Positions 1,679 to 24,703 of a stretch of 24,703 nucleotides of DNA are shown here, in pieces. Both the position numbers and the translations under genes were made by a program. The stretch comes from a virus, in the UHGV virus genome UHGV-0099692. The stretch is one strand, 5' to 3'. The notes below the pieces were generated by a model. The model was not told the origin of the DNA and did not search any database. It saw nothing but the letters and a program-made list of their open reading frames with translations. Numbering within the stretch: position 1 is the first letter of the stretch; the number at the start of each line of letters is the position of its first letter.

Positions 1679-1711
1679 TATGCCAATTGTTTACTAAAAA
1701 TTATTAAAAAT

Positions 1712-1857: not shown

Positions 1858-1866
1858 GTAATCAAA

Positions 1867-3400: not shown

Positions 3401-3536
3401 CATTTTTTGAGTCTCGATATTAGCTGATAACCCAATACCTGAGTTATTCACTGACTCCGAGTCTGTTACGTTTCTGCTTTTTTGCGATACGTTGTATTCC
3501 CTCAATTTACACCCGCTTTGTCTGCGAGGTGGGGTT

Positions 3537-5219: not shown

Positions 5220-5312
5220 CCATTACAAAGTCTATCTGCGGGGGGCTTGATAAAGGTGCTTTCACCTCGCTTAGCATGGTATGTTCTGACTACCAACTTT
5301 TTGGGAGGACAC

Positions 5313-5537: not shown

Positions 5538-5672
5538 ATATACCTCGGGCGGTTTTTTACGTTCATTACCGTACGCAATTACAGCAGGCATTCATTGAGT
5601 GCCTGTGATAATGATTTATCAACGTGCTTGCAAACGGTATTCTAGACCTCCAATTATCCTAAGGAGGTTTTT

Positions 5673-6077: not shown

Positions 6078-6137
6078 AATTTCTACCCTCACGAGTTAAG
6101 TTGTTTTGTGATGGTTATTCGCAATGAATATCTTTAG

Positions 6138-6164
6138 CCACTGGCATTTGCTGGTGGTTTTTTT
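6138..6164 (+). terminator. Possible intrinsic terminator after the AT-rich ORF
   Basis: CCACTGGCA-tt-TGCTGGTGG imperfect hairpin (G-U pairs needed) followed by a 7-T run (6158-6164). Confidence 0.35.
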
Positions 6165-6261
6165 ATGCGCATCCCTCGCGCACCACAAAGGGAGTCTTTC
6201 AGTAGTGATTCTGAATATCAGTGTGATAAACGTATTTGACAATCATTATCATTTTTGGTGG

Positions 6262-6301
6262 GTCCTTTCCGGCGATCCGACAGGTTACGGGGCGGCGACC
6301 T
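6262..6301. other. cos site: cosQ-like region plus cosN; 12-nt cohesive end GGGCGGCGACCT at 6290-6301
   Basis: GGTCCTTTCCGGCGATCCGACAGGTTACG|GGGCGGCGACCTCGCGG matches, from memory, the lambda right-end/left-end junction almost base for base; lies directly upstream of the Nu1 homologue as in lambda. Confidence 0.85.
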
Positions 6302-6336
6302 CGCGGTTTTTCACTATTTATGAAAATTTTTCAGGG

Positions 6337-6455
6337 AAAATCGTGTCGGTACTTCTCGAATATAACTTTTTGTTTTTTTTTAATATTGCATCCGTAAAGG
6401 TCCGACATGAAAGTGTCCGAAAATGCCTTTTTCTGGCGTTTTCATGTCGGGCCTT
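6337..6455. promoter_or_regulatory. cosB-like region with repeated GTCCGACATGAAA-type elements (candidate terminase small-subunit binding sites)
   Basis: Seen directly: GGTCCGACATGAAA (6399-6412) and its inverted partner TTTCATGTCGGGCC (6442-6455), one mismatch; related copies AAAATCGTGTCGGT (6337-6350) and GTGTCCGAAAATG (6413-6425). Located between cosN and Nu1. Confidence 0.4.
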
Positions 6456-8927: not shown

Positions 8928-9117
8928 ACTGCAGGCGCTGCGTCAGGCGCGCCTTGATTTATTAACCGGTAAACGGGTGGTGTCTGTCCAGAAAGATGGT
9001 CGCAGAATTGAATATACGGCAGCTTCTCTGGATGAGCTTAACCGGGCGATCAATGATGCGGAGTCGGTACTGGGGACAACCCGGCGTCGCCGTCGTCCGC
9101 TGGGAGTGAGGTTATGA
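8911..9117 (+). CDS. W: Head-tail joining protein gpW (68 aa)
   Basis: GGAGGAG RBS; ...LTGKRVVSVQKDGRRIEYTAASLDEL... matches the remembered lambda W core ([23 protein letters not shown]); overlaps the A stop and the B start. Confidence 0.9.
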   Translation: MVTVAELQALRQARLDLLTGKRVVSVQKDGRRIEYTAASLDELNRAINDAESVLGTTRRRRRPLGVRL

Positions 9118-10706: not shown

Positions 10707-12201
10707 TCTTTCACACATTATTGCCGCAGCATTCAATGAACCGCTGCTTCTGGAGCCCGCCTATGCGCGGGTTTTCTTTTGCGCGCTCGGGCGCGAGATG
10801 GGAGCAGCAAGTCTTTCGGTACCACAACAGCAGGTACAGTTTGATGCTCCCGGAATGCTGGCTGAAACGGATGAGTACATGGCCGGAGGTAAACGACCGG
10901 CCCGTGTTTACCGGGTGGTGAACGGTATTGCTGTACTGCCGGTGACCGGCACGCTGGTGCACCGGCTGGGTGGTATGCGGCCATTTTCCGGAATGACAGG
11001 CTATGACGGTATTGTCGCCTGTCTTCAGCAGGCAATGGCGGATAGCCAGGTGCGGGGCGTACTGCTGGACATTGACAGTCCGGGCGGGCAGGCCGCCGGC
11101 GCGTTTGACTGCGCTGACATGATTTACCGCCTCCGTCAGCAGAAGCCGGTCTGGGCACTGTGCAATGACACTGCCTGTTCTGCAGCCATGCTGCTGGCGT
11201 CGGCCTGCTCCCGACGGCTGGTTACCCAGACATCCCGTATCGGCTCCATTGGCGTGATGATGAGCCATGTCAGCTATGCCGGTCATCTGGCGCAGGCCGG
11301 GGTGGATATCACGCTGATTTATGCCGGGGCGCACAAGGTGGATGGCAATCAGTTTGAAGCGTTGCCGGCAGAGGTTCGCCAGGATATGCAGCAGCGGATT
11401 GATGCGGCGCACCGGATGTTTGCCGAAAAAGTGGCGATGTATACCGGGTTGTCTGTGGATGCGGTCACGGGAACAGAGGCCGCCGTTTTTGAAGGTCAGT
11501 CCGGCATTGAGGCCGGGCTGGCGGATGAATTAATCAATGCGTCGGATGCCATCAGTGTGATGGCCACGGCGCTGAACAGTAATGTCAGAGGAGGCACTAT
11601 GCCGCAATTAACTGCAACGGAAGCCGCCGTGCAGGAGAACCAGCGAGTGATGGGGATCCTGACATGCCAGGAAGCGAAAGGACGTGAACAGCTTGCCACG
11701 ATGCTGGCAGGGCAACAGGGCATGAGCGTTGAACAGGCCCGGGCGATTCTGGCCGCGGCGGCACCGCAGCAGCCGGTGGCATCCGCGCAGAGTGAAGCCG
11801 ATCGCATTATGGCGTGTGAAGAAGCGAACGGTCGTGAACAACTGGCGGCAACGCTGGCGGCGATGCCGGAGATGACGGTGGAAAAAGCCCGCCCGATCCT
11901 GGCGGCTGCACCACTGGCGGATGCCGGGCCCTCACTTCGTGATCAGATCATGGCCCTGGATGAGGCAAAAGGGGCAGAAGCGCAGGCTGAAAAACTGGCG
12001 GCCTGCCCGGGAATGACCGTGGAGAACGCCCGGGCTGTGCTGGCTGCGGGATCAGGTAAGGCCGAACCGGTCTCTGCATCCACAACCGCCCTGTTTGAAC
12101 ATTTCATGGCGAATCATTCACCGGCAGCGGTGCGGGGTGGCGTGTCACAGACGTCAGCAGACGGTGATGCGGACGTGAAAATGCTCATGGCCATGCCATG
12201 A
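10696..12201 (+). CDS. C: Head maturation protease / scaffold (lambda gpC homologue, S49/ClpP-like), 501 aa
   Basis: GTG start overlapping the B stop; N-terminus AAFNEPLLLEPAYARVFFCAL and protease core (GIAVLPVTGTLV, DSPGG, RIGSIGVMMSH, ITLIYAGAHKVDGN) match remembered lambda C; C-terminal third carries three tandem repeat units. Confidence 0.9.
   Translation: MRRNLSHIIAAAFNEPLLLEPAYARVFFCALGREMGAASLSVPQQQVQFDAPGMLAETDEYMAGGKRPARVYRVVNGIAVLPVTGTLVHRLGGMRPFSGMTGYDGIVACLQQAMADSQVRGVLLDIDSPGGQAAGAFDCADMIYRLRQQKPVWALCNDTACSAAMLLASACSRRLVTQTSRIGSIGVMMSHVSYAGHLAQAGVDITLIYAGAHKVDGNQFEALPAEVRQDMQQRIDAAHRMFAEKVAMYTGLSVDAVTGTEAAVFEGQSGIEAGLADELINASDAISVMATALNSNVRGGTMPQLTATEAAVQENQRVMGILTCQEAKGREQLATMLAGQQGMSVEQARAILAAAAPQQPVASAQSEADRIMACEEANGREQLAATLAAMPEMTVEKARPILAAAPLADAGPSLRDQIMALDEAKGAEAQAEKLAACPGMTVENARAVLAAGSGKAEPVSASTTALFEHFMANHSPAAVRGGVSQTSADGDADVKMLMAMP
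11599..12201 (+). CDS. nu3: Candidate nested in-frame scaffold protein (Nu3-like), 200 aa
   Basis: Internal ATG at 11599 in the C frame, preceded by GAGGAGG (11588-11594); lambda encodes Nu3 the same way inside C. Spacer to the ATG is short (4 nt). Confidence 0.45.
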   Translation: MPQLTATEAAVQENQRVMGILTCQEAKGREQLATMLAGQQGMSVEQARAILAAAAPQQPVASAQSEADRIMACEEANGREQLAATLAAMPEMTVEKARPILAAAPLADAGPSLRDQIMALDEAKGAEAQAEKLAACPGMTVENARAVLAAGSGKAEPVSASTTALFEHFMANHSPAAVRGGVSQTSADGDADVKMLMAMP

Positions 12202-12237
12202 AGTCAGTGCTGACCATCAATATGAGGTTTTAACAAA

Positions 12238-12585
12238 ATGGTGACGAAAACCATCACTGAACAGCGTGCGGAAGTACGTATTTTTGCTGGTAATGATCCG
12301 GCTCATACCGCCACAGGCAGCAGCGGGATTTCTTCTGCAACACCGGCTCTGACGCCCCTGATGCTGGATGAAGCCACCGGGAAACTGGTGGTCTGGGATG
12401 GACAGAAAGCCGGTAGTGCGGTTGGCATACTGGTACTGCCGCTTGAAGGCACAGAGACGGTGCTGACCTATTACAAGTCGGGGACCTTTGCGACGGAGGC
12501 AATCCGCTGGCCTGACAGTGTGGATGAACACAAAAAGGCAAATGCCTTTGCCGGCACAGCCCTGAGTCACGCGGCTCTGCCGTAA
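12238..12585 (+). CDS. D: Head decoration protein (lambda gpD homologue), 115 aa
   Basis: ...NDPAHTATGSSG...PLMLDEATGKLVVWDGQ...YYKSGTF...FAGTA matches remembered lambda D motifs (SDPAHTATAPGG, PLMLDTSSRKLVAWDG, FYKSGTF, FAGTA). Confidence 0.9.
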   Translation: MVTKTITEQRAEVRIFAGNDPAHTATGSSGISSATPALTPLMLDEATGKLVVWDGQKAGSAVGILVLPLEGTETVLTYYKSGTFATEAIRWPDSVDEHKKANAFAGTALSHAALP

Positions 12586-12592
12586 CACGTTA

Positions 12593-12614
12593 TCAGGCCA
12601 CCATGGTGGCCTGA
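12593..12614. repeat. Perfect 22-bp palindrome TCAGGCCACCATGGTGGCCTGA in the D-E intergenic region
   Basis: Verified base by base (12593 pairs with 12614 and so on to the centre); centred on CCATGG; 8 nt after the D stop and upstream of the E RBS. Confidence 0.7.
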
Positions 12615-12642
12615 CTGATTTCTGAATGAAAGGAACTGATTT

Positions 12643-13671
12643 ATGGGATTGTTTACGACCCGCCAGTTACTCGGTTATACCGAACAAAAAGTTAAATTCC
12701 GTGCGCTGTTTCTGGAGCTGTTTTTCCGCCGTACGGTGAATTTCCACACCGAAGAGGTGATGCTGGACAAAATTACCGGAAAAACGCCGGTGGCGGCCTA
12801 TGTCTCCCCGATCGTTGAAGGAAAAGTGCTGCGCCATCGTGGTGGTGAAACCCGCGTGTTGCGTCCGGGCTACGTCAAGCCGAAACACGAATTTAATTAC
12901 CAGCAGGCGGTTGAGCGCCTTCCCGGTGAAGATCCGGCTCAGCTGAACGACCCGGCCTACCGTCGTCTGCGTATCATCACTGATAACCTCAAACAGGAAG
13001 AGCACGCTATTGTGCAGGTGGAAGAAATGCAGGCGGTGAATGCCGTGCTGTATGGCAAATATACGATGGAAGGAGACCAGTTCGAGAAAATTGAAGTCGA
13101 TTTTGGCCGATCGACGAAGAATAACATCATACAAGGTAGCGGTAAGGAGTGGTCAAAACAGGATCGTGACACGTTCGACCCGACATATGATATCGACCTT
13201 TTCTGTGATCAGGCCAGTGGTCTTGTGAATATTGCCATTATGGACGGTACCGTCTGGCGTCTGCTGAATGGCTTTAAGCTTTTCCGCGAAAAAATGGATA
13301 CCCGTCGCGGTTCAAATTCACAACTCGAAACGGCAGTGAAAGATCTGGGCGCAGTGGTATCCTTCAAGGGGTATTACGGCGATCTGGCCATTGTGGTAGC
13401 GAAAACGTCTTATGTGGCAGAGGACGGTACCGAAAAACGTTATCTGCCGGAGGGCATGCTGGTGCTGGGGAATACGGCGGCAGAGGGGATTCGTTGCTAT
13501 GGAGCCATTAAGGATGCACAGGCGTTGTCTGAAGGAGTGGTGGCTTCTTCCCGTTACCCGAAACACTGGCTGACCGTGGGCGATCCGTCCTGTGAATTCA
13601 CCATGACGCAGTCCGCGCCGCTGATGGTGCTGCCGGATCCGGATGAGTTTGTGGTGGTACAGGTGAAATAA
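12643..13671 (+). CDS. E: Major capsid protein (lambda gpE homologue), 342 aa
   Basis: Colinear similarity to remembered lambda E (YVSPIV, PGYVKPKHE, DPAYRRLRII, QVEEMQAV, GKYTM, TRRGSNSxLETAVKDLG, REFTMxQSAPLM, PDEFVxVQ). Confidence 0.95.
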   Translation: MGLFTTRQLLGYTEQKVKFRALFLELFFRRTVNFHTEEVMLDKITGKTPVAAYVSPIVEGKVLRHRGGETRVLRPGYVKPKHEFNYQQAVERLPGEDPAQLNDPAYRRLRIITDNLKQEEHAIVQVEEMQAVNAVLYGKYTMEGDQFEKIEVDFGRSTKNNIIQGSGKEWSKQDRDTFDPTYDIDLFCDQASGLVNIAIMDGTVWRLLNGFKLFREKMDTRRGSNSQLETAVKDLGAVVSFKGYYGDLAIVVAKTSYVAEDGTEKRYLPEGMLVLGNTAAEGIRCYGAIKDAQALSEGVVASSRYPKHWLTVGDPSCEFTMTQSAPLMVLPDPDEFVVVQVK

Positions 13672-13679
13672 TCCGTGAG

Positions 13680-13708
13680 CGGGGGCGAAATGCCCCCGTG
13701 TCTTTTTT
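13680..13708 (+). terminator. Intrinsic terminator-like hairpin between E and FI
   Basis: CGGGGGC-gaaat-GCCCCCG (7-bp GC stem) followed by tgtcTTTTTT; 9 nt after the E stop, upstream of the FI RBS (CAGGAGG). Confidence 0.45.
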
Positions 13709-13722
13709 CACAGGAGGCTGAG

Positions 13723-14106
13723 ATGGCAACAAAAGAAGAAAATCTGAATCGTCTTCGTCAACTGGCTGGCCTGCTGGGGCGCGAGGCGGATATGTCGGGG
13801 AGTGCTGCGGATATTGCTCAACGTGTGTCTGAGTGGGAAGAGGAGCTTGCTGTTTCCCCGGAGGGCATTATGCACTCTGATGAGAGCGGGGCTGATCAAA
13901 ATCACACAGACGATGGTGAGCAGTTGAACAACACGGATGCTCCGGATGATGTTAAAGCCGTCCGGGTACGGAAGTGCCTGCAAGTAATGGGGTATTGCCC
14001 GGAGACAGGTCGTCCCGTTGAGCTGGCGTTACGGGGTATGCGTGTTCTGGTGCCATCATCACTGGCAACGGCCATGATACAGCACGGAACGGCTGAATAT
14101 GCGTGA
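13723..14106 (+). CDS. FI: DNA-packaging/head assembly protein FI-like (127 aa)
   Basis: Position between E and FII; acidic middle region similar in character to lambda FI; ATG at 13723 after CAGGAGG preferred over the ORF-track start at 13675, which overlaps the terminator hairpin. Confidence 0.75.
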   Translation: MATKEENLNRLRQLAGLLGREADMSGSAADIAQRVSEWEEELAVSPEGIMHSDESGADQNHTDDGEQLNNTDAPDDVKAVRVRKCLQVMGYCPETGRPVELALRGMRVLVPSSLATAMIQHGTAEYA

Positions 14107-14452
14107 TTTTCAGAATGCCTTTGATGCTGCCCTCGCCGGGGTAGACAGTACGATCGTTGAAGTGATGGGGCTCTGTGCGCAGTTCACCTCGGGGGCACAG
14201 TGTGGCAGCGAAGTTCAGGGGGTTTTTGACGATCCGGAGTCGCTGGGGTTTGCCGGTGGCGGGGTCCGTATTGAAGGAAGCAGCCCGTCATTATTTGTGC
14301 GGACGGATACGGTTCGTGCCGTGCGGCGTGGTGACACGCTGACCATTAATGGTGAGACATTCTGGGTGGATCGTGTTTCTCCGGATGACGGGGGTAGCTG
14401 TTATCTCTGGCTCAACCGTGGGCAACCACCCGCAGTTAACCGGCGACGATAA
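14099..14452 (+). CDS. FII: Head-tail connector FII (117 aa)
   Basis: GVFDDPES...GVRIEGSSPSLFVRTD...RRGDTLTI...FWVDRVSPDDGGSCYLWL...PPAVNRRR nearly identical to remembered lambda FII. Confidence 0.92.
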   Translation: MRDFQNAFDAALAGVDSTIVEVMGLCAQFTSGAQCGSEVQGVFDDPESLGFAGGGVRIEGSSPSLFVRTDTVRAVRRGDTLTINGETFWVDRVSPDDGGSCYLWLNRGQPPAVNRRR

Positions 14453-14466
14453 ACGCAGGGTGAATT

Positions 14467-15042
14467 ATGGCGATAAAAGGGCTTGATCAGGCGATTGACA
14501 ATCTGAGCCGGGTTCGTAAAAACGCCATTCCGGCTGCTTCTGCAATGACCATTAACCGCGTGGCCATAACGGCGATTAATCAGTCTTCGTCACAGGTTGC
14601 CCGGGAAACCAGGGTGAGACGGAAACTGGTAAAGGAACGGTCCAGACTGAAACGGGCGACGGTCAGAAATCCGAATGCCAGAATTATCGTTAACCGCGGT
14701 GATCTCCCTGTGATTAAGCTGGGGATCAGAATGCTGGGGCGTCGTCCGAACAGCATACTCAAAGCCGGTCAGCATCGTTATCAGCGGGCATTTATCCAGC
14801 GATTAAATAATGGGCGCTGGCATGTTATGCAACGTCTTCCCCAGGCCAGATATGAGGAGGGCAATGACGACAAGGGAAGGAAAAAGCGTAATCGCCTTCC
14901 CATTCAGGTGGTGAAAATCCCGATGGCGGCCCCACTGAAACAGGCATTTGATGAGAATGTTGACCGTATCCGGCGTGAACGCCTGCCCGGAGAACTGGCA
15001 TCCGCGCTGAAACAACAACTGAGGATTGCGATAAAACGATGA
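14467..15042 (+). CDS. Z: Tail completion protein gpZ homologue (191 aa)
   Basis: MAIKGLDQAIDNLSR...SQVARETRVRRKLVKERSRLKRATV...NRGDLPVIKLG...NGRWHVMQR...VVKIPMA matches remembered lambda Z. Confidence 0.9.
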   Translation: MAIKGLDQAIDNLSRVRKNAIPAASAMTINRVAITAINQSSSQVARETRVRRKLVKERSRLKRATVRNPNARIIVNRGDLPVIKLGIRMLGRRPNSILKAGQHRYQRAFIQRLNNGRWHVMQRLPQARYEEGNDDKGRKKRNRLPIQVVKIPMAAPLKQAFDENVDRIRRERLPGELASALKQQLRIAIKR

Positions 15043-15434
15043 AACACACTGATATCCGTGCTGCAGTGCTGGATGCACTCGAGCAGCATGAACACGGGGC
15101 GACGCTGTTTGATGGTCGCCCCGTTGTTTTTGACGAAGAGGATTTTCCTGCGATCGCGGTTTATCTGACGGATGCAGAGTATACCGGTGAAGAGCTGGAT
15201 GCAGATACCTGGCGGGCCACACTGCATATTGAGGTGTTTTTACCGGCACAGGTACCGGATTCAGAGCTTGATCAGTGGATGGAAAGCCGGATTTATCCGG
15301 CGATGACTGCGATCCCGGCACTGGCAGGACTGATTACCACGATGGTTACGCAGGGCTATGAGTATCGTCGTGATGACGATATGGCGTTATGGAGTTCTGC
15401 AGATCTGACTTATTCCATTACATACGAGATGTGA
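15039..15434 (+). CDS. U: Tail terminator gpU homologue (131 aa)
   Basis: [33 protein letters not shown]...[26 protein letters not shown]...[10 protein letters not shown] matches remembered lambda U; start overlaps the Z stop. Confidence 0.92.
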
Positions 15435-15441
15435 GGACGAT

Positions 15442-16194
15442 ATGGCAACACCAAATCCCCTTGAGCCGGTAAAAGGTGCCGGTACCATTCTGTGGGTTTA
15501 CAACGGCAAGGGTGATGCTTATGCAAACCCGTTGTCAGACGATGACTGGCAGCGACTGGCTAAGGTGAAGGATCTGACGCCGGGCGAGATGACGGCAGAA
15601 TCCTACGATGATAACTACCTGGATGATGAAGACGCGGACTGGACCGCGACCGGGCAGGGGCAGAAATCTGCAGGTGATACCAGTTTTACGCTGGCCTGGA
15701 AACCGGGAGAGGAAGGCCAGAAAGGGCTTATAGGCTGGTTTGAAAGCGGCGATGTCCGGGCCTATAAAATCAGTTTTCCGAATGGCACGGTGGATGTGTT
15801 TCGTGGCTGGGTCAGCAGTATCGGTAAGGCCGTGACGGCGAAAGAAGTGATCACCCGCACGGTGAAAGTCACTAACGTGGGTAAACCTTCTGTAGCGGAA
15901 GAACGCAGCAAAATTACGCCGGTCAGTGCGATTAAGGTGACGCCGACATCCGGTACGGTGGCAAAAGGGAAAACAACCACCCTGACGGTTTCTTTTGAGC
16001 CGGAAAGTGCAACCGACAAGACGTTCAGAGCGGTTTCCGCCGATCCGTCGAAAGCCACCATTAGTGTGAAAGATATGACAATTACGGTAAACGGCGTGGC
16101 GACAGGTAAGGTGCAGATCCCTGTGGTGAGCGGAAATGGTCAGTTCGCCGCAGTGGCTGAAGTCACCGTTACTGAAGCGGGCGCTGCAGGGTAA
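15442..16194 (+). CDS. V: Major tail tube protein gpV homologue (250 aa) with C-terminal Ig-like domain
   Basis: [11 protein letters not shown]...ANPLSDDDW...[11 protein letters not shown]...[23 protein letters not shown]...[41 protein letters not shown] matches remembered lambda V. Confidence 0.95.
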
Positions 16195-16207
16195 ACGGAG
16201 GTAATAC

Positions 16208-16639
16208 ATGTTTCTGAAAACAGAACAATTTGAATATAACGGTGTGTCTGTCACGCTTTCCGAATTGTCTGCGCTGCAGCGTATCGAGCATCTTGCCCTC
16301 CTGAAACGGCGTGCAGAACAGGCAGAATCCTGCGGCAACCTGCAGGTAAGCGTGGAAGATCTCGTCAGAACCGGCGCGTTTCTGGTGGCGATGTCCCTGT
16401 GGCATAACCATCCACAGAAAACGCAGTCACCGTCAATGAATGAGGCCGTGATGAAGATAGAGCAGGAAGTGCTCACCACCTGGCCTGCCGATGCCATTGC
16501 CCGGGCGGAAGACGTGGTGTTGTGCCTGTCCGGGATGATCGAAGCTGTTCGTCCGGATACTGATATTACTGAAGTGGCGAAAAATAACACGCTGACTGAT
16601 GATGATTTTTCTGCGGGAAAGTCTTCGACGGCGAGCTGA
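16208..16639 (+). CDS. G: Tail assembly chaperone gpG homologue (143 aa)
   Basis: MFLKTEQFEYNGVSVTLSELSALQRIEHLALLKRRAEQAES...AFLVAMSLWHNHPQKTQSPSMNEAV...VVLCLSGM matches remembered lambda G. Confidence 0.92.
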   Translation: MFLKTEQFEYNGVSVTLSELSALQRIEHLALLKRRAEQAESCGNLQVSVEDLVRTGAFLVAMSLWHNHPQKTQSPSMNEAVMKIEQEVLTTWPADAIARAEDVVLCLSGMIEAVRPDTDITEVAKNNTLTDDDFSAGKSSTAS

Positions 16640-17079
16640 ACTTTGCCCTCAGACTGGCGCGTGAGATGGGGAGACCCGACTGGCGCGCCATGCTTGCCGG
16701 GATGACATCCACCGAATATGCCGACTGGCACCGTTTTTACCGCACGCATTATTTTCAGGATACCCAGCTGGATATGCATTTTTCCGGGCTGACGTACGCT
16801 GTACTCAGCCTGTTTTTTTGCGATCCGGATATGCATCCCTCTGATTTCAGTCTGCTTGTCCCCCGGCATGAGGAAGAGCAGGTGGAGAGGCCGGATGAGG
16901 ACAAAATGCTGATGCAGAAAGCGGCAGGACTTGCCGGAGGCGTCCGGTTCGGTGGGGACGGAGGGCGCGATATTTTATCGTCTGCGGATGTGGCGGATGT
17001 CATGGTGGATGATGCCGCATTAATGATGGCTTCAGCGGGGATTCCGGGAGGTGTGAGATATGTCCCAGCCGGTTGGTGA
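16208..17079 (+). CDS. GT: Tail assembly chaperone fusion G-T, made by -1 frameshift at 16615-16621
   Basis: The -1 frame downstream of the slippery site gives ...RLAREMGRPDWRAMLAGMTSTEYADWHRFY...DMHFSGLTY...LMQKAAGLAGGVRFG..., closely matching remembered lambda gpT; this frame has no independent plausible start. Confidence 0.8.
16615..16621 (+). other. Programmed -1 ribosomal frameshift slippery heptamer G GGA AAG (G to G-T)
   Basis: GGGAAAG at 16615-16621 with GGA AAG in the G zero frame (verified by codon counting from 16208); the -1 frame continues open to 17079 and encodes a lambda T-like sequence. Confidence 0.8.
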
Positions 17080-19633
17080 TCTTGTTATTGACCTGAGTCT
17101 GGATGCTGTCCGTTTCGATGAGCAGATGAGCCGGGTAAGGCGTCATTTTTCAGGTCTGGATACCGACGCCAGAAAAACCGCCAGTGCTGTTGAACAGGGC
17201 CTGAGCCGCCAGGCGCTGGCTGCACAAAAAGCCGGGATTTCCGTCGGGCAGTATAAAGCGGCCATGCGAACCCTGCCCGCACAGTTTACGGATATCGCCA
17301 CGCAGCTTGCAGGTGGTCAGAATCCCTGGCTGATCCTGCTGCAACAGGGCGGTCAGGTGAAGGACTCCTTCGGCGGGATGATCCCCATGTTCAGGGGGCT
17401 CGCCGGTGCGATCACCCTGCCGATGGTCGGGGTCACCTCGCTGGCGGTGGCGACAGGTGCGCTGGTGTACGCCTGGTACCAGGGAGATTCCACGCTTTCA
17501 GCGTTTAATAAAACCCTGGTTCTTTCCGGTAATCAGTCCGGACTGACTGCCGATCGTATGCTGACTCTCTCAAGAGCCGGGCAGGCAGCAGGGCTGACGT
17601 TTAACCAGGCGAGAGAGTCACTGGCAGCCCTGGTGAATGCCGGTGTGCGTGGTGGTGAACAGTTTGATGCCATCAACCAGAGTGTCGCGCGTTTTGCGTC
17701 TGCATCCGGTGTGGAGGTGGATAAAGTCGCTGAAGCCTTCGGGAAGCTGACCACTGACCCGACATCGGGACTGATGGCGATGGCGCGCCAGTTCCGTAAC
17801 GTGACGGCAGAGCAGATTGCGTATGTTGCACAGCTGCAGCGTTCCGGAGACGAGGCCGGGGCATTGCAGGCGGCGAACGATATCGCCACGAAAGGCTTTG
17901 ATGAGCAGACCCGTCGCCTGAAAGAAAACATGGGAACACTGGAGACCTGGGCGGATAAAACAGGGAAGGCATTCAAATCGATGTGGGATGCCATTCTGGA
18001 TATCGGTCGTCCGGAATCCTCAGCGGATATGCTCGCCAGTGCACAGAAGGCATTTGATGAGGCGGATAAAAAATGGCAGTGGTACCAGAGTCGGAGCCAG
18101 CGCCGCGGTAAAATCTCCTCTTTCCGGGCCAACCTTCAGGGCGCATGGGATGACCGGGAAAATGCCCGTCTGGGTCTGGCAGCGGCCACGCTGCAGTCGG
18201 ATATGGAAAAAGCCGGTGAACTGGCGGCAAGGGACCGGGCTGAGCGTGAGGCGTCACAGCTGAAGTATACCGGAGAGGCGCAGAAGGCGTATGAGCGCCT
18301 GCTGACGCCACTGGAGAAATATACCGCCCGGCAGGAAGAGCTGAATAAGGCCCTGAAAGACGGGAAAATCCTGCAGGCGGATTACAACACGCTGATGGCG
18401 TCGGCAAAAAAGGATTATGAATCGACGCTGAAAAAGCCGTCAGGTGTGAAGGTGTCTGCCGGTGAGCGCCAGGAAGACCGGGCGCATGCAGCCATGCTGG
18501 CGCTTGAAACCGAGCTCAGGACGCTGGAAAAACACAGCGGTGTGAATGAGAAAATCAGCCAGCAGCGCCGGGATTTATGGGAAGCGGAAAATCAGTATGT
18601 GGTCCTGAAAGAGGCCGCCACGAAACGGCAGTTATCTGAGCAGGAAAAATCCCTGCTGGCTCATGAGAAAGAGACGCTGGAGTACAAACGCCAGCTGGCT
18701 GAGCTGGGAGACAAGATTGAACACCAGAAGCGGCTGAATGAGCTGGCACAGCAGGCGGCGCGGTTTGAACAGCAGCAGAGCGCGAAGCAGGCGGCAATCA
18801 GCGCAAAAGCCCGCGGCCTCACCGACCGTCAGGCGCAGCGGGAGTCGGAAGAGCAGCGCCTTCGTGAGGTGTACGGTGATAATCCGGCTGCGCTGGCGAA
18901 GGCCACATCTGCACTGAAGAACACCTGGTCTGCGGAGGAGCAGCTTCGTGGAAGCTGGATGGCCGGGATGAAGTCCGGCTGGGGCGAGTGGGCGGAAAGT
19001 GCGACGGACAGTTTTTCGCAGGTTAAAAGTGTGGCCACGCAGACCTTTGACGGTATTGCACAGAATATGGCGGCGATGCTGACCGGCAGCGAACAGAACT
19101 GGCGCAGCTTCACCCGTTCCGTGCTGTCCATGATGACAGAAATTCTGCTTAAGCAGGCAATGGTGGGGATTGTCGGGAGTATCGGCAGCGCCATTGGCGG
19201 GGCTGTTGGTGGCGGCGCATCCGCGTCAGGCGGTACAGCCATTCAGGCCGCTGCGGCGAAATTCCATTTTGCAACCGGAGGATTTACGGGAACCGGCGGC
19301 AAATATGAGCCAGCGGGGATTGTTCACCGTGGTGAATTTGTCTTCACGAAGGAGGCAACCAGCCGGATTGGCGTGGGAAATCTCTACCGGCTGATGCGCG
19401 GCTATGCCACCGGCGGTTATGTCGGTGGCACCGGAAGTCCGGCGCAAATGCGGCGGGCCGAAGGCATTAATTTTAATCAGAACAATCACGTGGTGATTCA
19501 GAACGACGGTACGAATGGTCTGCCAGGTCCACAGATGATGAAGGCGGTGTATGACATGGCCCGCAAGGGTGCCCGTGATGAAATCCAGGCACAGATGCGC
19601 GATGGTGGTCTGTTCTCCGGAGGTGGACGATGA
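17060..19633 (+). CDS. H: Tail tape measure protein gpH homologue (857 aa)
   Basis: MSQPVGDLVIDLSLDAVRFDEQMSRVRRHFSG... plus long colinear match to remembered lambda H, including the Gly-rich C-terminal region (GIVGSIGSAIGGAVGGGASASGG...GGFTGTGGKYEPAGIVHRGEFVFTKEA). Confidence 0.95.
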   Translation: MSQPVGDLVIDLSLDAVRFDEQMSRVRRHFSGLDTDARKTASAVEQGLSRQALAAQKAGISVGQYKAAMRTLPAQFTDIATQLAGGQNPWLILLQQGGQVKDSFGGMIPMFRGLAGAITLPMVGVTSLAVATGALVYAWYQGDSTLSAFNKTLVLSGNQSGLTADRMLTLSRAGQAAGLTFNQARESLAALVNAGVRGGEQFDAINQSVARFASASGVEVDKVAEAFGKLTTDPTSGLMAMARQFRNVTAEQIAYVAQLQRSGDEAGALQAANDIATKGFDEQTRRLKENMGTLETWADKTGKAFKSMWDAILDIGRPESSADMLASAQKAFDEADKKWQWYQSRSQRRGKISSFRANLQGAWDDRENARLGLAAATLQSDMEKAGELAARDRAEREASQLKYTGEAQKAYERLLTPLEKYTARQEELNKALKDGKILQADYNTLMASAKKDYESTLKKPSGVKVSAGERQEDRAHAAMLALETELRTLEKHSGVNEKISQQRRDLWEAENQYVVLKEAATKRQLSEQEKSLLAHEKETLEYKRQLAELGDKIEHQKRLNELAQQAARFEQQQSAKQAAISAKARGLTDRQAQRESEEQRLREVYGDNPAALAKATSALKNTWSAEEQLRGSWMAGMKSGWGEWAESATDSFSQVKSVATQTFDGIAQNMAAMLTGSEQNWRSFTRSVLSMMTEILLKQAMVGIVGSIGSAIGGAVGGGASASGGTAIQAAAAKFHFATGGFTGTGGKYEPAGIVHRGEFVFTKEATSRIGVGNLYRLMRGYATGGYVGGTGSPAQMRRAEGINFNQNNHVVIQNDGTNGLPGPQMMKAVYDMARKGARDEIQAQMRDGGLFSGGGR

Positions 19634-19959
19634 AAACCTTCCGCTGGAAAGTGAAACCCGGTATGGATGTGGCTTCGGCCCCTTCCGTAAGAAAGGTGCG
19701 CTTTGGTGATGGCTATTCCCAGCGAGCTCCTGCCGGGCTGAATGCCGACCTGAAAACGTACAGCGTGACGCTTTCTGTTCCCCGTTGGGAGGCCACGGCG
19801 CTTGAGTCGTTTCTGGCTGAGCACGGGGGCTGGAAATCCTTTCTGTGGACGCCGCCTTATGAGTGGCGGCAGATAAAGGTGACCTGCGCAAAATGGTCGT
19901 CGCGGGTCAGTATGCTGCGTGTTGAGTTCAGCGCAGAGTTTGAACAGGTGGTGAACTGA
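19630..19959 (+). CDS. M: Tail tip protein gpM homologue (109 aa)
   Basis: MKTFRWKVKPGMDVAS.PSVRKVRFGDGYSQRAPAGLNA.LKTYSVTLSVP... essentially identical to remembered lambda M; ATGA overlap with the H stop. Confidence 0.95.
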   Translation: MKTFRWKVKPGMDVASAPSVRKVRFGDGYSQRAPAGLNADLKTYSVTLSVPRWEATALESFLAEHGGWKSFLWTPPYEWRQIKVTCAKWSSRVSMLRVEFSAEFEQVVN

Positions 19960-20657
19960 TGCAGGATATCCGGCAGGAAACACTGAATGAATGCACCCGT
20001 GCGGAGCAGTCGGCCAGCGTGGTGCTCTGGGAAATCGACCTGACAGAGGTCGGTGGAGAACGTTATTTTTTCTGTAATGAGCAGAACGAAAAAGGTGAGC
20101 CGGTCACCTGGCAGGGGCGACAGTATCAGCCGTATCCCATTCAGGGGAGCGGTTTTGAACTGAATGGCAAAGGCACCAGTACGCGCCCCACGCTGACGGT
20201 TTCTAACCTGTACGGTATGGTCACCGGGATGGCGGAAGATATGCAGAGTCTGGTCGGCGGAACGGTGGTCCGGCGTAAGGTTTACGCCCGTTTTCTGGAT
20301 GCGGTGAACTTCGTCAACGGAAACAGTTACGCCGATCCGGAGCAGGAGGTGATCAGCCGCTGGCGCATTGAGCAGTGCAGCGAACTGAGCGCGGTGAGTG
20401 CCTCCTTTGTACTGTCCACGCCGACGGAAACGGATGGCGCTGTTTTTCCGGGACGTATCATGCTGGCCAACACCTGCACCTGGACCTATCTCGGTGACGA
20501 GTGCGGTTATAGCGGTCCGGCTGTCGCGGATGAATATGACCAGCCAACGTCCGATATCACGAAGGATAAATGCAGCAAATGCCTGAGCGGTTGTAAGTTC
20601 CGCAATAACGTCGGCAACTTTGGCGGCTTCCTTTCCATTAACAAACTTTCGCAGTAA
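19959..20657 (+). CDS. L: Tail tip protein gpL homologue (232 aa)
   Basis: Position and size as lambda L; Cys cluster near the C-terminus (CTWTYLGDECGY, CSKCLSGC); start overlaps the M stop. Confidence 0.92.
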   Translation: MQDIRQETLNECTRAEQSASVVLWEIDLTEVGGERYFFCNEQNEKGEPVTWQGRQYQPYPIQGSGFELNGKGTSTRPTLTVSNLYGMVTGMAEDMQSLVGGTVVRRKVYARFLDAVNFVNGNSYADPEQEVISRWRIEQCSELSAVSASFVLSTPTETDGAVFPGRIMLANTCTWTYLGDECGYSGPAVADEYDQPTSDITKDKCSKCLSGCKFRNNVGNFGGFLSINKLSQ

Positions 20658-20662
20658 ATCCC

Positions 20663-21406
20663 ATGACACAGACAGAATCAGCGATTCTGGCGCACGCCCG
20701 GCGATGTGCGCCAGCGGAGTCGTGCGGCTTCGTGGTAAGCACGCCGGAGGGGGAAAGATATTTTCCCTGCGTGAATATCTCCGGTGAGCCGGAGGCGTAT
20801 TTCCGTATGTCGCCGGAAGACTGGCTGCAGGCAGAAATGCAGGGTGAGATTGTGGCGCTGGTCCACAGCCACCCCGGTGGTCTGCCCTGGCTGAGTGAGG
20901 CCGACCGGCGGCTGCAGGTGCAGAGTGATTTGCCGTGGTGGCTGGTCTGCCGGGGGACGATTCATAAGTTCCGCTGTGTGCCGCATCTCACCGGGCGGCG
21001 CTTTGAGCACGGGGTGACGGACTGTTACACGCTGTTCCGGGATGCTTATCATCTGGCGGGGATTGAGATGCCGGATTTTCATCGCGGGGATGACTGGTGG
21101 CGTCACGGTCAGAATCTCTATCTGGATAATCTGGAGGCCACAGGGCTGTATCAGGTGCCGTTGTCATCAGCACAACCGGGCGATGTGCTGCTGTGCTGCT
21201 TTGGTTCATCGGTGCCGAATCATGCCGCCATTTACTGTGGTGACGGCGAGCTGCTGCACCATATTCCTGAACAACTGAGCAAACGAGAGAGGTACACCGA
21301 CAAATGGCAGCGACGCACACACTCCCTCTGGCGTCACCGGGCATGGCGCGCATCTGCCTTTACGGGGATTTACAACGATTTGGTCGCCGCATCGACCTTC
21401 GTGTGA
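20663..21406 (+). CDS. K: Tail tip assembly protein gpK homologue with JAMM/MPN and NlpC/P60 motifs (247 aa from the first ATG)
   Basis: JAMM signature seen directly (upstream Glu in PAESCG, then HSHPGGLPWLSEAD = HxHx7Sx2D) and an NlpC/P60-like Cys/His (VTDCYTLF, NHAAIY). An internal Met at 20807 would give the shorter 199-aa product I recall for lambda K. Confidence 0.85.
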   Translation: MTQTESAILAHARRCAPAESCGFVVSTPEGERYFPCVNISGEPEAYFRMSPEDWLQAEMQGEIVALVHSHPGGLPWLSEADRRLQVQSDLPWWLVCRGTIHKFRCVPHLTGRRFEHGVTDCYTLFRDAYHLAGIEMPDFHRGDDWWRHGQNLYLDNLEATGLYQVPLSSAQPGDVLLCCFGSSVPNHAAIYCGDGELLHHIPEQLSKRERYTDKWQRRTHSLWRHRAWRASAFTGIYNDLVAASTFV

Positions 21407-21945
21407 AAACGGGGGCCGAAGCCATCCGGGCGCTGGCCACACAGCTCCCGGCGTTTCGCCAGAAACTGAATGAGGGCTGGTATCAGGTGCGCATTGCCGG
21501 GCGTGATGCAGGCGAAAACGAATTATCTGCCCGTCTTAATGAGCCGCTGGCAAATGGTGCCGTGATCCACATCGTACCGCGTCTGGCGGGTGCCAAAAGT
21601 GGTGGTGTTTTTCAGGCAGTGCTGGGTGCGGCGCTGATTGCTACGGCAATCTGGATGCCAGGAATCAGTATCGCTTTCAGTAACATTCTCTTTTCTATGG
21701 GGGCAGCGATGACGCTTGGTGGTGTCGCACAGATGCTGGCCCCTAAACCCAAAACTCCACGTACACAGACAACGGATAACGGCAAACAGAACACCTATTT
21801 CTCCTCACTGGATAACATGGTTGCCCAGGGCAATGTCCTGCCTGTTCTGTACGGTGAAATGCGCGTGGGGTCACGTGTGGCATCTCAGGAGATCAGCACG
21901 GCAGATGAAGGGGATGGTGGTCAGGTTGTGGTAATTGGGCGGTAA
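21304..21945 (+). CDS. I: Tail tip assembly protein gpI homologue (213 aa)
   Basis: MAATHTLPLASPGMARICLYGDLQRFGRRIDLRVKTGAEAIRALATQLPAFRQKL... and C-terminal LAPKPKTPRTQTTDNGKQNTYFSSLDNMVAQGNVLPVLYGEMRVGSRV near-identical to remembered lambda I; overlaps the 3' end of K in another frame, as in lambda. Confidence 0.92.
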   Translation: MAATHTLPLASPGMARICLYGDLQRFGRRIDLRVKTGAEAIRALATQLPAFRQKLNEGWYQVRIAGRDAGENELSARLNEPLANGAVIHIVPRLAGAKSGGVFQAVLGAALIATAIWMPGISIAFSNILFSMGAAMTLGGVAQMLAPKPKTPRTQTTDNGKQNTYFSSLDNMVAQGNVLPVLYGEMRVGSRVASQEISTADEGDGGQVVVIGR

Positions 21946-22017
21946 TATTATTTACTCATGTTCTAACTGATTTAATATTTATATCGAACACTGATAATTA
22001 TTCTATTGGTTAGCTAT

Positions 22018-22356
22018 ATGAACAAAACGATTTTATTCTGCACGATTATTGCCTTAACAGGATGTAAATCTTTGGATTACGTAAAATCCGGAAAACCTGT
22101 AATGGAAGGTAATTCATTAAAAAATATTGATGAATTGTCAGGCTGCATATCCAGACAATGGGCTGGTAATGGAACACCTATAACATCCCTTCCTATTGAG
22201 AATGGGGTAAGCCTTTTAGTTCCACAGGCTATGGGGGGATATGATGTTGTGCTTGATATCAAAAAAGCAGGAAATGGCAGTAGTTTTACTCTTTATGAAC
22301 GTGTACCAGCATTAACGCCAAAAATTTTTGCTGATAGTGTTAATGCATGTAAATAA
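22018..22356 (+). CDS. Lipoprotein of unknown function (112 aa) inserted between I and J; candidate lysogenic-conversion or superinfection-exclusion factor
   Basis: ATG at 22018; MNKTILFCTIIALTGC = signal peptide with lipobox LTGC, Lys at +2 after the lipid-modified Cys (not an inner-membrane retention signal); AT-rich in a GC-rich tail operon; followed by its own terminator. The ORF-track start (TTG 22006) is less likely. Confidence 0.7.
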   Translation: MNKTILFCTIIALTGCKSLDYVKSGKPVMEGNSLKNIDELSGCISRQWAGNGTPITSLPIENGVSLLVPQAMGGYDVVLDIKKAGNGSSFTLYERVPALTPKIFADSVNACK

Positions 22357-22380
22357 TAGTTAATCCTGCTGTAACTCATG

Positions 22381-22406
22381 AGCCGCCTTTTGGGCGGCTT
22401 TGTTGT
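22381..22406 (+). terminator. Intrinsic terminator after the lipoprotein gene
   Basis: AGCCGCC-ttttg-GGCGGCT followed by TTGTTGTTTAT; classic GC stem plus T-rich tail, 25 nt after the stop. Confidence 0.5.
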
Positions 22407-22422
22407 TTATGGAGTGTGAGGA

Positions 22423-24703
22423 ATGGGTAAAGGCAGCAGTAAGGGGCATACCCCGCGCGAAGCGAAGGACAACCTGAAATCCACGCAATTACTGAGTGTG
22501 ATCGATGCCATCAGCGAAGGGCCGATTGAAGGTCCGGTGGATGGATTAAAAAGCGTGCTGCTGAACAGTACGCCGGTGCTGGACAGTGAGGGGAATACCA
22601 ATATATCCGGCGTCACGGTGGTGTTCCGGGCCGGTGAGCAGGAGCAGACACCGCCGGAGGGATTTGAATCCTCCGGCTCCGAGACGGTGCTGGGTACGGA
22701 AGTGAAGTACGACACGCCGATTACCCGGACCATCACGTCGGCAAACATCGACCGTCTGCGCTTTACCTTCGGTGTGCAGGCACTGGTGGAAACCACCTCA
22801 AAGGGGGACCGGAATCCGTCGGAAGTCCGCCTGCTGGTTCAGATACAGCGTAATGGTGGCTGGGTGACGGAAAAAGACATCACCATTAAGGGCAAAACCA
22901 CCTCGCAGTATCTGGCCTCGGTGGTGGTGGATAACCTGCCACCGCGCCCGTTTAATATCCGGATGCGCAGAATGACGCCGGACAGCACCACAGACCAGCT
23001 GCAGAACAAAACGCTCTGGTCGTCATACACCGAAATCATCGATGTGAAACAGTGCTACCCGAACACGGCACTGGTCGGCGTACAGGTGGATTCGGAGCAG
23101 TTCGGCAGCCAGCAGGTGAGCCGTAATTATCATCTGCGCGGGCGTATTCTGCAGGTGCCGTCGAACTATAACCCGCAGACTCGGCAATACAGCGGTATCT
23201 GGGACGGAACGTTTAAACCGGCATACAGCAACAACATGGCCTGGTGTCTGTGGGATATGCTGACCCATCCACGCTACGGCATGGGGAAACGTCTTGGTGC
23301 GGCGGATGTGGACAAATGGGCGCTGTATGTCATCGGCCAGTACTGCGACCAGTCAGTGCCGGACGGCTTTGGCGGCACGGAGCCGCGCATCACCTGTAAT
23401 GCGTACCTGACCACACAGCGCAAGGCGTGGGATGTGCTCAGTGATTTCTGCTCGGCGATGCGCTGTATGCCGGTATGGAACGGGCAGACGCTGACGTTCG
23501 TGCAGGACCGACCATCAGATAAGGTGTGGACCTATAACCGCAGTAATGTGGTGATGCCGGATGATGGCGCGCCGTTCCGCTACAGTTTCAGCGCCCTGAA
23601 GGACCGCCATAATGCCGTTGAGGTGAACTGGATTGACCCGAACAACGGCTGGGAGACGGCGACAGAGCTTGTTGAAGATACGCAGGCCATTGCCCGTTAC
23701 GGTCGTAACGTCACGAAGATGGATGCCTTTGGCTGTACCAGCCGGGGGCAGGCGCACCGCGCCGGGCTGTGGCTGATTAAAACGGAACTGCTGGAAACGC
23801 AGACCGTGGACTTCAGCGTGGGTGCGGAAGGGCTTCGCCATGTACCGGGGGATGTCATTGAAATCTGCGATGATGACTATGCGGGTATCAGCATCGGCGG
23901 GCGCGTGCTGGCGGTGAACAGCCAGACCCGGACGCTGACGCTCGACCGTGAAATCACGCTGCCATCCTCCGGTACCACGCTGATAAGCCTGGTTGACGGA
24001 AGTGGCAATCCGGTCAGCGTGGAGGTCCAGTCCGTCACCGACGGCGTGAAGGTAAAAGTGAGCCGTGTTCCTGACGGCGTTGCCGGATACAGCGTGTGGG
24101 GGCTGAAGCTGCCGACGCTGCGCCAGCGCCTGTTCCGCTGCGTGAGTATCCGTGAGAACGATGACGGCACGTATGCCATCACCGCCGTGCAGCATGTACC
24201 GGAAAAAGAAGCCATCGTGGATAACGGGGCGCACTTTGACGGCGACCAGAGCAGCACGGTGAATGGTGTCACGCCGCCAGCGGTGCAGCACCTGACTGCC
24301 GAAGTCACCGCAGACAGCGGGGAGTATCAGGTACTGGCCCGCTGGGACACGCCGAAGGTGGTGAAGGGGGTGAGCTTTATGCTTCGCCTGACCGTGACAG
24401 CGGATGACGGCAGTGAGCGGCTGGTCAGCACGGCCCGGACGACGGAAACCACATACCGCTTCAGGCAACTGGCGCTGGGGCGTTACACGCTGACGGTCCG
24501 GGCGGTAAATGCGTGGGGGCAGCAGGGCGATCCGGCATCGGTATCGTTCCGGATTGCGGCACCGGCAGCGCCTGTCACTATTGAACTGATACCAGGGTAT
24601 TTTCAGATAACAGCGGTCCCGAAACTGGCTGTATATGACCCGACGGTGCAGTTTGAGTTCTGGTTCTCGGAAAAGCGGATTGCGGATATCAGGCAGGTTG
24701 AAA
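22423..24703 (+). CDS. J: Tail tip / central tail fibre protein gpJ homologue, 5' portion only (truncated by the window end)
   Basis: [54 protein letters not shown]... near-identical to the remembered lambda J N-terminus and colinear for about 760 aa; ORF open to the last base of the window. Confidence 0.95.

Follow-up and report, generated by a model that had tools for sequence, protein, structure and literature searches.

Why does the tail gene cluster of a lambdoid prophage carry a small, AT-rich lipoprotein gene between genes I and J, did that gene arrive as a unit, and does its product act on other phages at the envelope of the lysogen? In the window analyzed here (the whole 24,703-nucleotide stretch of DNA), the two tail genes, the second of which continues past the window end, are separated by a spacer of 477 nt, compared with 60 nt in lambda, for which the original prediction gave only a few tens of base pairs. 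The answer developed below is that the spacer contains a horizontally acquired cassette with a single gene of an unstudied lipoprotein family, for which envelope-level phage exclusion is a tentative functional assignment by analogy.

Delineation of the insert

From position 6237 on, the window and the structural module of a lambdoid prophage of E. coli 042, which adjoins the trp operon, are colinear, with 97.6% identity; the colinear stretch runs from terminase through J, and the 042 prophage has a separate Lom/Ail gene downstream of J. Within this module, the spacer stands out by its composition: the GC content is 0.345-0.405 over positions 21900-22399 vs 0.55-0.62 in the flanks, and a composition scan identifies the spacer as the sole AT-rich island of the entire structural module (7600-24703). 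The spacer holds one ORF, which encodes the lipoprotein, and a hairpin located immediately before J (Table 1).

Table 1. Features of the I-J junction in the window
Feature	Coordinates	Strand	Remarks
Tail assembly gene I, left flank of the insert	21304..21945	+	Pfam PF06805 (Lambda_tail_I), E 4e-24; stop TAA 21943-21945
AT-rich leader of the insert, 72 nt	21946..22017	+	Weak promoter-like matches only; no clear Shine-Dalgarno
Promoter-like match, 8/12	21951-21978	+	TTTACT-N16-TAATAT
Promoter-like match, 8/12	21971-21998	+	TTTAAT-N16-GATAAT
In-frame TTG, alternative start	22006	+	Opens a 116-aa ORF
Lipoprotein gene, 112 aa, PHROG 914	22018..22356	+	ATG 22018, TAA 22354-22356; E 7e-33
Lipobox LTGC	22054-22065	+	L13-T14-G15-C16
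Codon of Cys16	22063-22065	+	Lipobox cysteine
Codon of Cys43	22144-22146	+	Conserved cysteine
Codon of Cys111	22348-22350	+	Conserved cysteine
GC-rich hairpin with T-rich tail, terminator-like	22380..22410	+	GAGCCGCC-TTT-GGGCGGCTT; stem 22380-22400, tail to about 22410; resident I-J element, outside the insert
Ribosome-binding site of J, GAGGA	22417-22421	+	
Gene J, 5' part (tail tip / host specificity), right flank	22423..24703	+	Colinear with gpJ of the E. coli 042 prophage

The original prediction described a roughly 480-bp AT-rich insert. The length and the composition of the spacer agree with this description, but the foreign DNA itself extends only from about 21946 to 22370-22379, that is, over some 420-430 bp, because the hairpin was already resident in the I-J junction. 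The prediction had also assigned the gene an intrinsic terminator of its own, at 22381-22406. A hairpin followed by a T-run is indeed found there: a hairpin scan reports 9 pairs, 6 of them GC, and the fold has an energy of -21.8 kcal/mol with a z-score of -2.5. This element, however, belongs to the junction and not to the cassette. The same hairpin is located 25 nt upstream of J in lambda (by reading) and in mEp460 (by alignment), both of which lack the insert; the lambda form is AAACCGCC-TGC-GGGCGGTTT-TGTCATTTAT, compared with GAGCCGCC-TTT-GGGCGGCTT-TGTTGTTTAT in the window, with one compensatory change that converts an A-T pair to a G-C pair. Given the presence of the homologous hairpin in the empty junctions of lambda and mEp460, the element was resident and was not brought by the insert, which landed upstream of it.

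The junction is evidently a variable spot, given that PhiR5_1, a phage with the commonest J C-terminus (see below), contains a different I-J spacer of 240 bp with a different hairpin. An Rfam search returns only a sub-threshold match to GcvB (19.5 bits vs the gathering score of 42), which we take to be due to chance. As a side result, the retention of a hairpin before J, with a compensatory change, in lambda itself points to a small, putative regulatory feature of a classic model phage.

We conclude that a lambdoid E. coli prophage has acquired the segment between 21946 and about 22375 horizontally, as a moron-type cassette of one gene. By the accepted description, a moron consists of extra DNA of different GC content with its own promoter and its own terminator (Juhala et al. 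2000; PMC3594210). The window copy is extra DNA of differing GC content, and it lacks a terminator of its own. Hence the moron reading proposed earlier holds for the foreign composition, the single-gene organization and the position next to J, but not for the terminator. Terminators of their own are present with the homologs in phage Fraca and in Burkholderia.

The lipoprotein and its family

The N-terminus of the product reads MNK-TILFCTIIA-LTGC; it consists of the signal peptide MNKTILFCTIIA (residues 1-15) and the lipidation site with lysine (Lys17) at +2 and serine at +3 (MNKTILFCTIIALTGC-KS). All elements of a lipoprotein signal are recognizable, namely a positively charged n-region, a hydrophobic h-region and a lipobox of the form [LVI][ASTVI][GAS]C, so that the earlier description of a 112-aa lipoprotein ORF with the lipobox LTGC and lysine at +2 is borne out by the ORF and its translation. 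In contrast, the two further cysteines, reported previously as C47 and C115, are C43 and C111: the homologs start at the ATG, which sets the numbering, and the earlier figures follow the 116-aa ORF that opens at the upstream TTG. An additional cysteine in the signal peptide, C8, is not conserved. The mature protein has a mass of about 10.6 kDa.

A search of the PHROG profiles with the window protein identifies PHROG 914, a family annotated as "unknown function", with an E-value of 7.3e-33 and an alignment of residues 1-112 to positions 1-118 of the 118-position profile. The gene can be assigned with high confidence as an accessory outer-membrane lipoprotein gene of this family. An exhaustive HMM profile search of 1.84 billion cluster representatives (clusters at 50% identity) detects 125 representatives at E 1e-3 or better, nearly all of them 105-125 aa long. 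A word-indexed search retrieves solely enterobacterial relatives, from E. coli, Klebsiella, Enterobacter, Kluyvera and Jejubacter, all named hypothetical; family members are found also in Burkholderia and in uncultured or metagenomic phages. For the distant subgroups, pattern-based retrieval yielded one locus for one of them, and a scan of species-representative genomes yielded one locus, from Kluyvera. All 103 aligned full-length members match PHROG 914, and none of them matches a Pfam family. The only invariant columns in the alignment of these 103 sequences are the lipobox cysteine, the cysteine 27 residues downstream and the penultimate cysteine (C16, C43 and C111 in the window protein), and aspartate at +2 is absent from every member checked.

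A Pfam search with the window protein gives no match at E-values up to 1, including Bor and DUF3568, and searches of NCBIfam, PADLOC and the PDB sequences with the protein and the family profiles return matches to signal peptides only, e.g., those of VirB7, FlgP and Llp. In the literature, the accession WP_001332187 was found in no paper, and no experiment was found on any PHROG 914 member. The gene is a genuine accessory lipoprotein gene, ordinary in kind, from an unstudied family, and envelope cargo of this sort is familiar among phages. Two other identities were considered and rejected. An o-spanin (an Rz1-like lipoprotein) does not fit: the protein is not proline-rich, its gene does not lie inside an Rz gene, and a lysis cassette is already present in the 042 prophage. 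The Tai tail-assembly-interference systems (PMC11364771) are also prophage-borne but correspond to phi80 orf63/orf64, and nothing links them to the lipoprotein.

The AlphaFold2 model, built from a 12-sequence alignment (pLDDT 83.7, pTM 0.76), contains a short tether followed by elements in the order beta-alpha-beta4-alpha; C43 belongs to the first of the two long helices, and C111 is found where the last helix ends. In the model, a C43-C111 disulfide stapling the two long helices appears plausible. Among the fold matches listed, the best structural analogue is Flpp3, a virulence lipoprotein of Francisella. The scores of KA1, DUF302 and BamC-N, which are unrelated domains, are about equal to that of Flpp3, and because of these comparable scores, the likeness is one of fold only and is not evidence of a shared function. 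At a threshold of E 0.001, the viral fold matches comprise a single uncharacterized protein, from Pseudomonas phage phiAH14a, with 25% identity, which is probably itself a member of PHROG 914. Llp (PDB 8a60 chain B) is absent from the fold matches listed, as are all other exclusion lipoproteins.

Distribution and genomic context

The window gene behaves as mobile accessory cargo. Of 5426 complete E. coli genomes, 334 contain the insert at a coverage of at least 80%, and the gene is annotated as hypothetical in all of them. Most I-J junctions are without it, and the junctions of lambda and mEp460 represent the empty site. No close-identity match to the gene was detected among 50,697 phage records. 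The recorded hosts or sources of the genomes, among the matches listed, are mostly human, animal or wastewater.

In pairwise comparisons of the 39 loci that contain all the compared segments, the insert differs on average by 1.35%, K by 5.7%, I by 6.6% and J by 3.5-4.1%, so that the diversity of the insert is 3-5 times below that of the flanks. The lower divergence shows that the cassette is younger than the neighboring tail genes and has spread over already diverged backbones. The 72-nt leader hardly varies among the 60 E. coli loci compared. Within the coding region, 57 of these 60 copies are intact and ungapped, and the variable codons comprise 11 with synonymous and 6 with nonsynonymous changes; with a pN/pS of about 0.16, the gene is under purifying selection.

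Relatives of the gene occupy several other slots. In the HK97-like phages Fraca and LMessi, the gene lies between K and I as the second one in a two-lipoprotein cassette that ends with its own terminator; the same K-I slot is used in three IMG/VR contigs (L064, L072 and L073) and in Kluyvera. In another contig (L065) and in similar Enterobacter-type contigs, the relative is found between the tail assembly chaperone genes and the tape-measure gene. In HK97, this slot is taken by gp15, which was the first moron to be described and has a proven exclusion function (PMC3594210). Other family members are associated with repressor genes. In Burkholderia gladioli prophages, a relative is encoded directly downstream of, and co-directionally with, a short CI-type repressor gene; a strong terminator comes next, and beyond it the cI/cro operator-like motif (OL-like) in inverted copy. 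The interval between cI and OL is the position of rexAB, a classic site of a lysogen-expressed moron (PMC7067206). In one contig (L063), the relative lies directly behind the CI-type HTH gene of an Arc / Bro-N / KilA-N module that resembles immI of P22 and is inserted between K and I, and in a high-GC metagenomic phage (L085) it adjoins Cro/CI-like HTH genes.

Expression

No sigma-70 site with a score of 9/12 or better was detected upstream of the gene on the plus strand, and the best promoter-like matches, both 8/12 (Table 1), are unremarkable in AT-rich DNA; the Shine-Dalgarno sequence of the gene is weak. No LexA box is present upstream of the gene in the window, and the sole CTGT-N8-ACAG sequence in the homologous E. 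coli loci falls within the tape-measure gene, at a distance of about 2.9 kb upstream.

The gene is part of the late operon with no terminator upstream of it, so that it is necessarily transcribed during lytic growth. The relatives from the K-I slot are preceded by a gap of just 30-45 nt or so, so that many copies may be expressed with the late operon only. The relatives that are encoded next to repressor genes, outside late operons, suggest expression in the lysogen, and by analogy such expression would be likely for the window copy as well.

Relationship to the receptor-binding end of J

A protein that masks the receptor of its own prophage should co-vary with the C-terminal receptor-binding region of J, and this expectation, implicit in the receptor-masking role originally suggested, does not hold. 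When the comparison of J is restricted to loci with a complete gene, three or more intact J C-terminal types (26, 6 and 3 loci) are each found adjacent to a lipoprotein of at least 98% identity; over the last 150 aa, these types are 41-60% identical. The N-terminal 800 residues of J are 96-99% identical in all loci except one (L037, 73%). Truncated J genes, too, are found next to a near-identical lipoprotein. The reverse association is equally loose: the commonest J C-terminus is present, at 95% identity or higher, in 53 phage records, including Stx2a phages, PhiR5_1, P-EibA and vB_EcoS-783R2, and the lipoprotein gene is present in none of the 53. Because one allele is combined with three or more J types, and the phages of the commonest type are devoid of the gene, the linkage to J is positional rather than specific.

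Possible functions

Bacterial lipoproteins are processed by the Lgt/Lsp/Lnt pathway, and under the Lol rule aspartate at +2 causes retention in the inner membrane. From the sequence of the signal and known lipoprotein biology, the precursor would be exported, lipidated on Cys16 and cleaved, and with lysine at +2 the mature protein is predicted to be sorted, in a Lol-dependent manner, to the outer membrane and anchored in its inner leaflet. In that position it would expose an alpha/beta domain of about 97 residues, probably stapled by the C43-C111 disulfide, on a tether of about 12 residues. By analogy with Llp, Cor and Rtp45, the lipoprotein might bind a component of the outer membrane or of its periplasmic face and block phages at, or just after, adsorption. 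Given that the gene is not tied to one J type, the target may be a step common to several receptor specificities rather than the receptor of the prophage itself. Envelope-level phage exclusion, with expression at least partly in the lysogen, is the explanation we favor, tentatively: taken as a whole, mechanism included, it has somewhat less than an even chance of being correct, and the exclusion role is proposed by analogy, not by homology.

Alternatively, if the lipoprotein were made solely from the Q-antiterminated late transcript, together with the tail genes, it would mask receptors during the lytic cycle; progeny virions would then not be wasted on the debris of the dying cell or on that cell itself, and protection of the lysogen would not be its role. 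The gene is oriented like the late operon and starts 72 nt from I; no terminator separates the two, a convincing promoter for the lipoprotein gene is lacking, and the K-I relatives have even shorter upstream gaps (30-45 nt). Furthermore, exclusion factors have been described as preventing adsorption that would be non-productive, be it to cells already infected or to fragments left after lysis (PMC12685063), and Llp itself is termed a lytic conversion protein (PMC9586334). Nevertheless, we consider this role unlikely in view of the relatives that are located next to repressor genes, outside late operons, and of the loose link to J types, which counts against masking of the phage's own receptor in either phase of the life cycle. 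The lack of a J-type linkage would, on the other hand, fit a phage-independent function, such as that of a host-fitness or virulence conversion lipoprotein similar to Bor or Flpp3, which would alter the envelope for the benefit of the lysogen in the host animal and would not exclude phages. The mostly human, animal and wastewater sources among the matches listed are compatible with such a function, envelope morons have precedents in bor and lom of lambda (PMC3594210), and the identification of Flpp3 as the best structural analogue fits a role in host interaction equally well. However, no family member matches the Bor or DUF3568 profiles of Pfam, the fold likeness is generic, extending equally to KA1, DUF302 and BamC-N, and the members from environmental Burkholderia and from metagenomic phages are hard to square with an animal-specific role, so that this explanation, too, seems improbable.

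The location of the gene within the tail cluster could be taken to indicate a structural or assembly component of the tail that is needed between I and J. This position is the sole support for such a role, which we regard as exceedingly improbable: a Sec/lipobox signal would export the protein from the cytoplasm, where tails assemble; the gene is missing in lambda, in mEp460 and in the 53 phage records with the same J C-terminus; relatives are encoded in immunity regions; and the composition is foreign. The weak ribosome-binding site, the lack of a clear promoter and the few interrupted or frameshifted copies (e.g., L060-L062 and an IS1 insertion in strain 24AR0376) would be expected of a decaying remnant or of a spurious ORF in AT-rich DNA, but the full-length match to PHROG 914, the conservation of length and of three invariant cysteines across 125 diverged clusters, the low pN/pS, the 57 intact copies among 60 and the confident fold prediction indicate that this is not a chance ORF, and decay is very improbable.

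Under the preferred reading, phage exclusion, a more specific proposal can be formulated, although it is quite unlikely to be correct in full. PHROG 914 might represent a structurally distinct class of exclusion lipoproteins (disulfide-stapled, with an Flpp3-like alpha/beta fold of about 10 kDa, on a short tether beneath the outer membrane) that block a step of siphophage entry common to different receptor types instead of masking one receptor; a candidate for such a step is the emergence of the tail tip or the tape measure at the periplasmic face. A block of a shared step would explain why one allele coexists with several J types, why relatives are found next to tape-measure and tail-tip genes, and why the distant Burkholderia relatives occupy a rexAB-like position.

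If the exclusion hypothesis is true, about 6% of complete E. coli genomes (334/5426) carry an unrecognized envelope-level resistance factor, which would matter for the prediction of host range in phage therapy and for the annotation of prophage cargo; because there is no pairing with a single receptor type, the mechanism would also stand apart from those of Llp, Cor and Rtp45. If, instead, the protein is Bor- or Flpp3-like, it would be an extra conversion gene of lambdoid E. coli prophages, including the prophage of the enteroaggregative strain 042.

Comparison with known lipoproteins and morons

Cor, which is encoded by phi80, N15, HK022 and T1, is a moron-type lipoprotein of the tail region in lambdoid and T1-like phages that acts on FhuA and excludes FhuA-dependent phages; Llp, Cor and Rtp45 are each about 6 kDa in size. 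Cor belongs to PHROG 1119, consists of 78 aa and is encoded downstream of J, whereas the window gene is located upstream of J. An hhalign comparison with N15 Cor covers 29 columns only, i.e., the signal peptide and about 12 additional residues, with a probability of 72%, which does not amount to homology of the mature domains; the window protein has no match to PHROG 1119, and only 2 of the 103 family members match it, weakly.

Small periplasmic lipoproteins that are anchored in the outer membrane, encoded next to the gene for the receptor-binding protein and deform the receptor from the periplasmic side are an established kind (PMC9586334, PMC12685063). The positional parallel with exclusion lipoproteins drawn in the original prediction is apt and is strengthened by more recent examples: Rtp45 and the BASEL siphophage exclusion lipoproteins adjoin gpJ (PMC9586334, PMC12685063). 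Llp of T5 is a small outer-membrane lipoprotein that faces the periplasm and jams FhuA; its Cys11-Cys58 disulfide constrains the termini, and its gene adjoins that of the receptor-binding protein (PMC9586334). The window protein is similar to Llp in its phage origin, lipoprotein type and adjacency to the receptor-binding protein gene, but the two align only at the signal peptide (residues 1-19, E 0.95), and Llp does not occur among the fold matches listed; moreover, Llp is paired with one receptor, whereas the window gene is not tied to one J type. Rtp45 deforms LptDE, and Rtp45 and the BASEL siphophage lipoproteins exclude phages according to the receptor used, including LptD (PMC12685063). 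Lpp021 and Lpp010 of mEpimmI phages have been demonstrated experimentally to exclude OmpA- and LamB-dependent phages, including lambda (PMC11893012). Like the window gene, the genes of these two lipoproteins are located in the structural cluster next to J, but they belong to PHROG 4281 and PHROG 12984, and the hhalign alignments with the window protein span 17-20 signal-peptide columns only. Lpp021, Lpp010, Rtp45 and the BASEL lipoproteins are 72-82 aa long and are encoded downstream of J, those of the mEp phages on the opposite strand. The window protein is nearly twice the size of the known exclusion lipoproteins.

Lambda Bor (Iss) resembles the window protein in being a prophage-encoded outer-membrane lipoprotein of about 100 aa and a conversion factor; the bor gene is part of the lysis region, and its product makes the host resistant to serum. 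Flpp3 (DUF3568) of Francisella tularensis shares 6-9% sequence identity with the window protein, and neither the window protein nor any of the 103 family members matches Pfam DUF3568 at E 0.01 or better. The moron gene of HK97, gp15, is, similarly to the window gene, a single small gene of foreign composition in the tail operon that encodes an envelope protein, and its function is superinfection exclusion (PMC3594210); however, gp15 is no lipoprotein but an inner-membrane member of the YebO family, and its sequence has no relationship to that of the window protein. The original prediction did not recognize the sequence as Cor, Llp, Bor or Lom, and sequence, profile and fold comparisons all agree with this assessment. 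By analogy, the window protein plausibly works in the same manner as the Llp, Cor, Rtp45 and Lpp systems, yet it is a member of none of them.

Variation at the tail gene junctions

The I-J junction of phage PhiR5_1 contains a 240-bp spacer that differs from the others, appears non-coding and carries two other hairpins, although the J protein of this phage has the commonest of the C-termini found beside the lipoprotein gene. Because this spacer differs, the junction looks like a hot spot of recombination or insertion. In Escherichia coli 24AR0376 (H34), the junction match is split into two pieces that flank an IS1 family transposase, and several IMG/VR loci contain kilobase-scale insertions between L and K, between K and I, or between the lipoprotein gene and J. 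In three further loci (L060-L062), the copies of the lipoprotein gene are frameshifted or match only in part.

Elsewhere, PHROG 914 homologs are located between K and I. Phages Fraca and LMessi, both HK97-like, carry a cassette of two lipoprotein genes with a strong terminator of its own; the homolog stands second, and the gene ahead of it encodes an uncharacterized lipoprotein of 115 aa (PHROG 2320) for which no Pfam family was identified. In locus L063, an immI-like module lies directly 5' of the lipoprotein homolog within the tail cluster and encodes an Arc-like repressor, a Bro-N protein, an unknown ORF, a KilA-N protein and a CI-type HTH_3 protein.

In the window itself, more low-GC stretches (0.33-0.44) are present upstream of the structural module, at 1200-3600 and 5200-6400. 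This part shows no colinearity with the prophage of E. coli 042, and other accessory genes may lie there.

Coordinates of the features discussed
Feature	Source	Position	Remark
Terminator-like hairpin	Window	22380-22410	~25 nt 5' of J start codon
Lambda hairpin	L075 (NC_001416)	Locus 163-198	About 15462-15497 of record
Promoter-like site TTTACA-N18-AAAAAT	Window	22324-22353	Minus strand; 9 of 12
I-J spacer	L076 (PhiR5_1)	1222-1461	
Split junction match	H34 (NZ_CP195347.1)	2197380-2198706	
Loci listed with H34	L037, L007, L048, L050, L053		
Two-lipoprotein cassette	L001 (Fraca), L002 (LMessi)	3647-4336 in each	K-I
immI-like regulatory module	L063	4311-7898	In tail cluster, K-I
LexA-box palindrome	L077, L079 (Burkholderia)	7891-7910 in each	
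LexA-box palindrome	L081 (Burkholderia)	5589-5608	
N15 Cor	L087	3119-3355	

Candidate regulatory elements

The hairpin that precedes J is retained in lambda, mEp460 and the insert-bearing prophages, and across these its stem shows a compensatory change from A-T to G-C; the retrieved stretch of the lambda record contains no feature entry for it. This element could terminate stray transcription, stabilize the mRNA or tune the translation of J. The antisense promoter-like site that falls within the lipoprotein gene, at its 3' end, is the only 9/12 site in the region, and downstream of it there are only short antisense ORFs (43-61 aa). With an expectation of 1.6 sites of this score for the region, it is probably a chance occurrence.

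In two Burkholderia prophage lineages, a perfect LexA-box palindrome (TACTGTACATAAATACAGTA and TACTGTATGGATGAACAGTA, one per lineage) is located between the PHROG 914 lipoprotein gene and a conserved, divergent minus-strand ORF that has a strong ribosome-binding site and contains the motif RC[RK]PGD[ML]A. The adjoining repressor is short, with HTH the only recorded Pfam families, and therefore the divergent ORF probably encodes a LexA-controlled antirepressor.

Similarity to Cor

The most conserved N-terminal motif in the PHROG 914 family alignment (A3) is C-x-S-x-x-D-L-R-x-x-x-P. The segment of N15 Cor past the lipobox, C-SGMLEKQSPV, resembles this motif, a likeness that could reflect a common tether or sorting motif, or chance.
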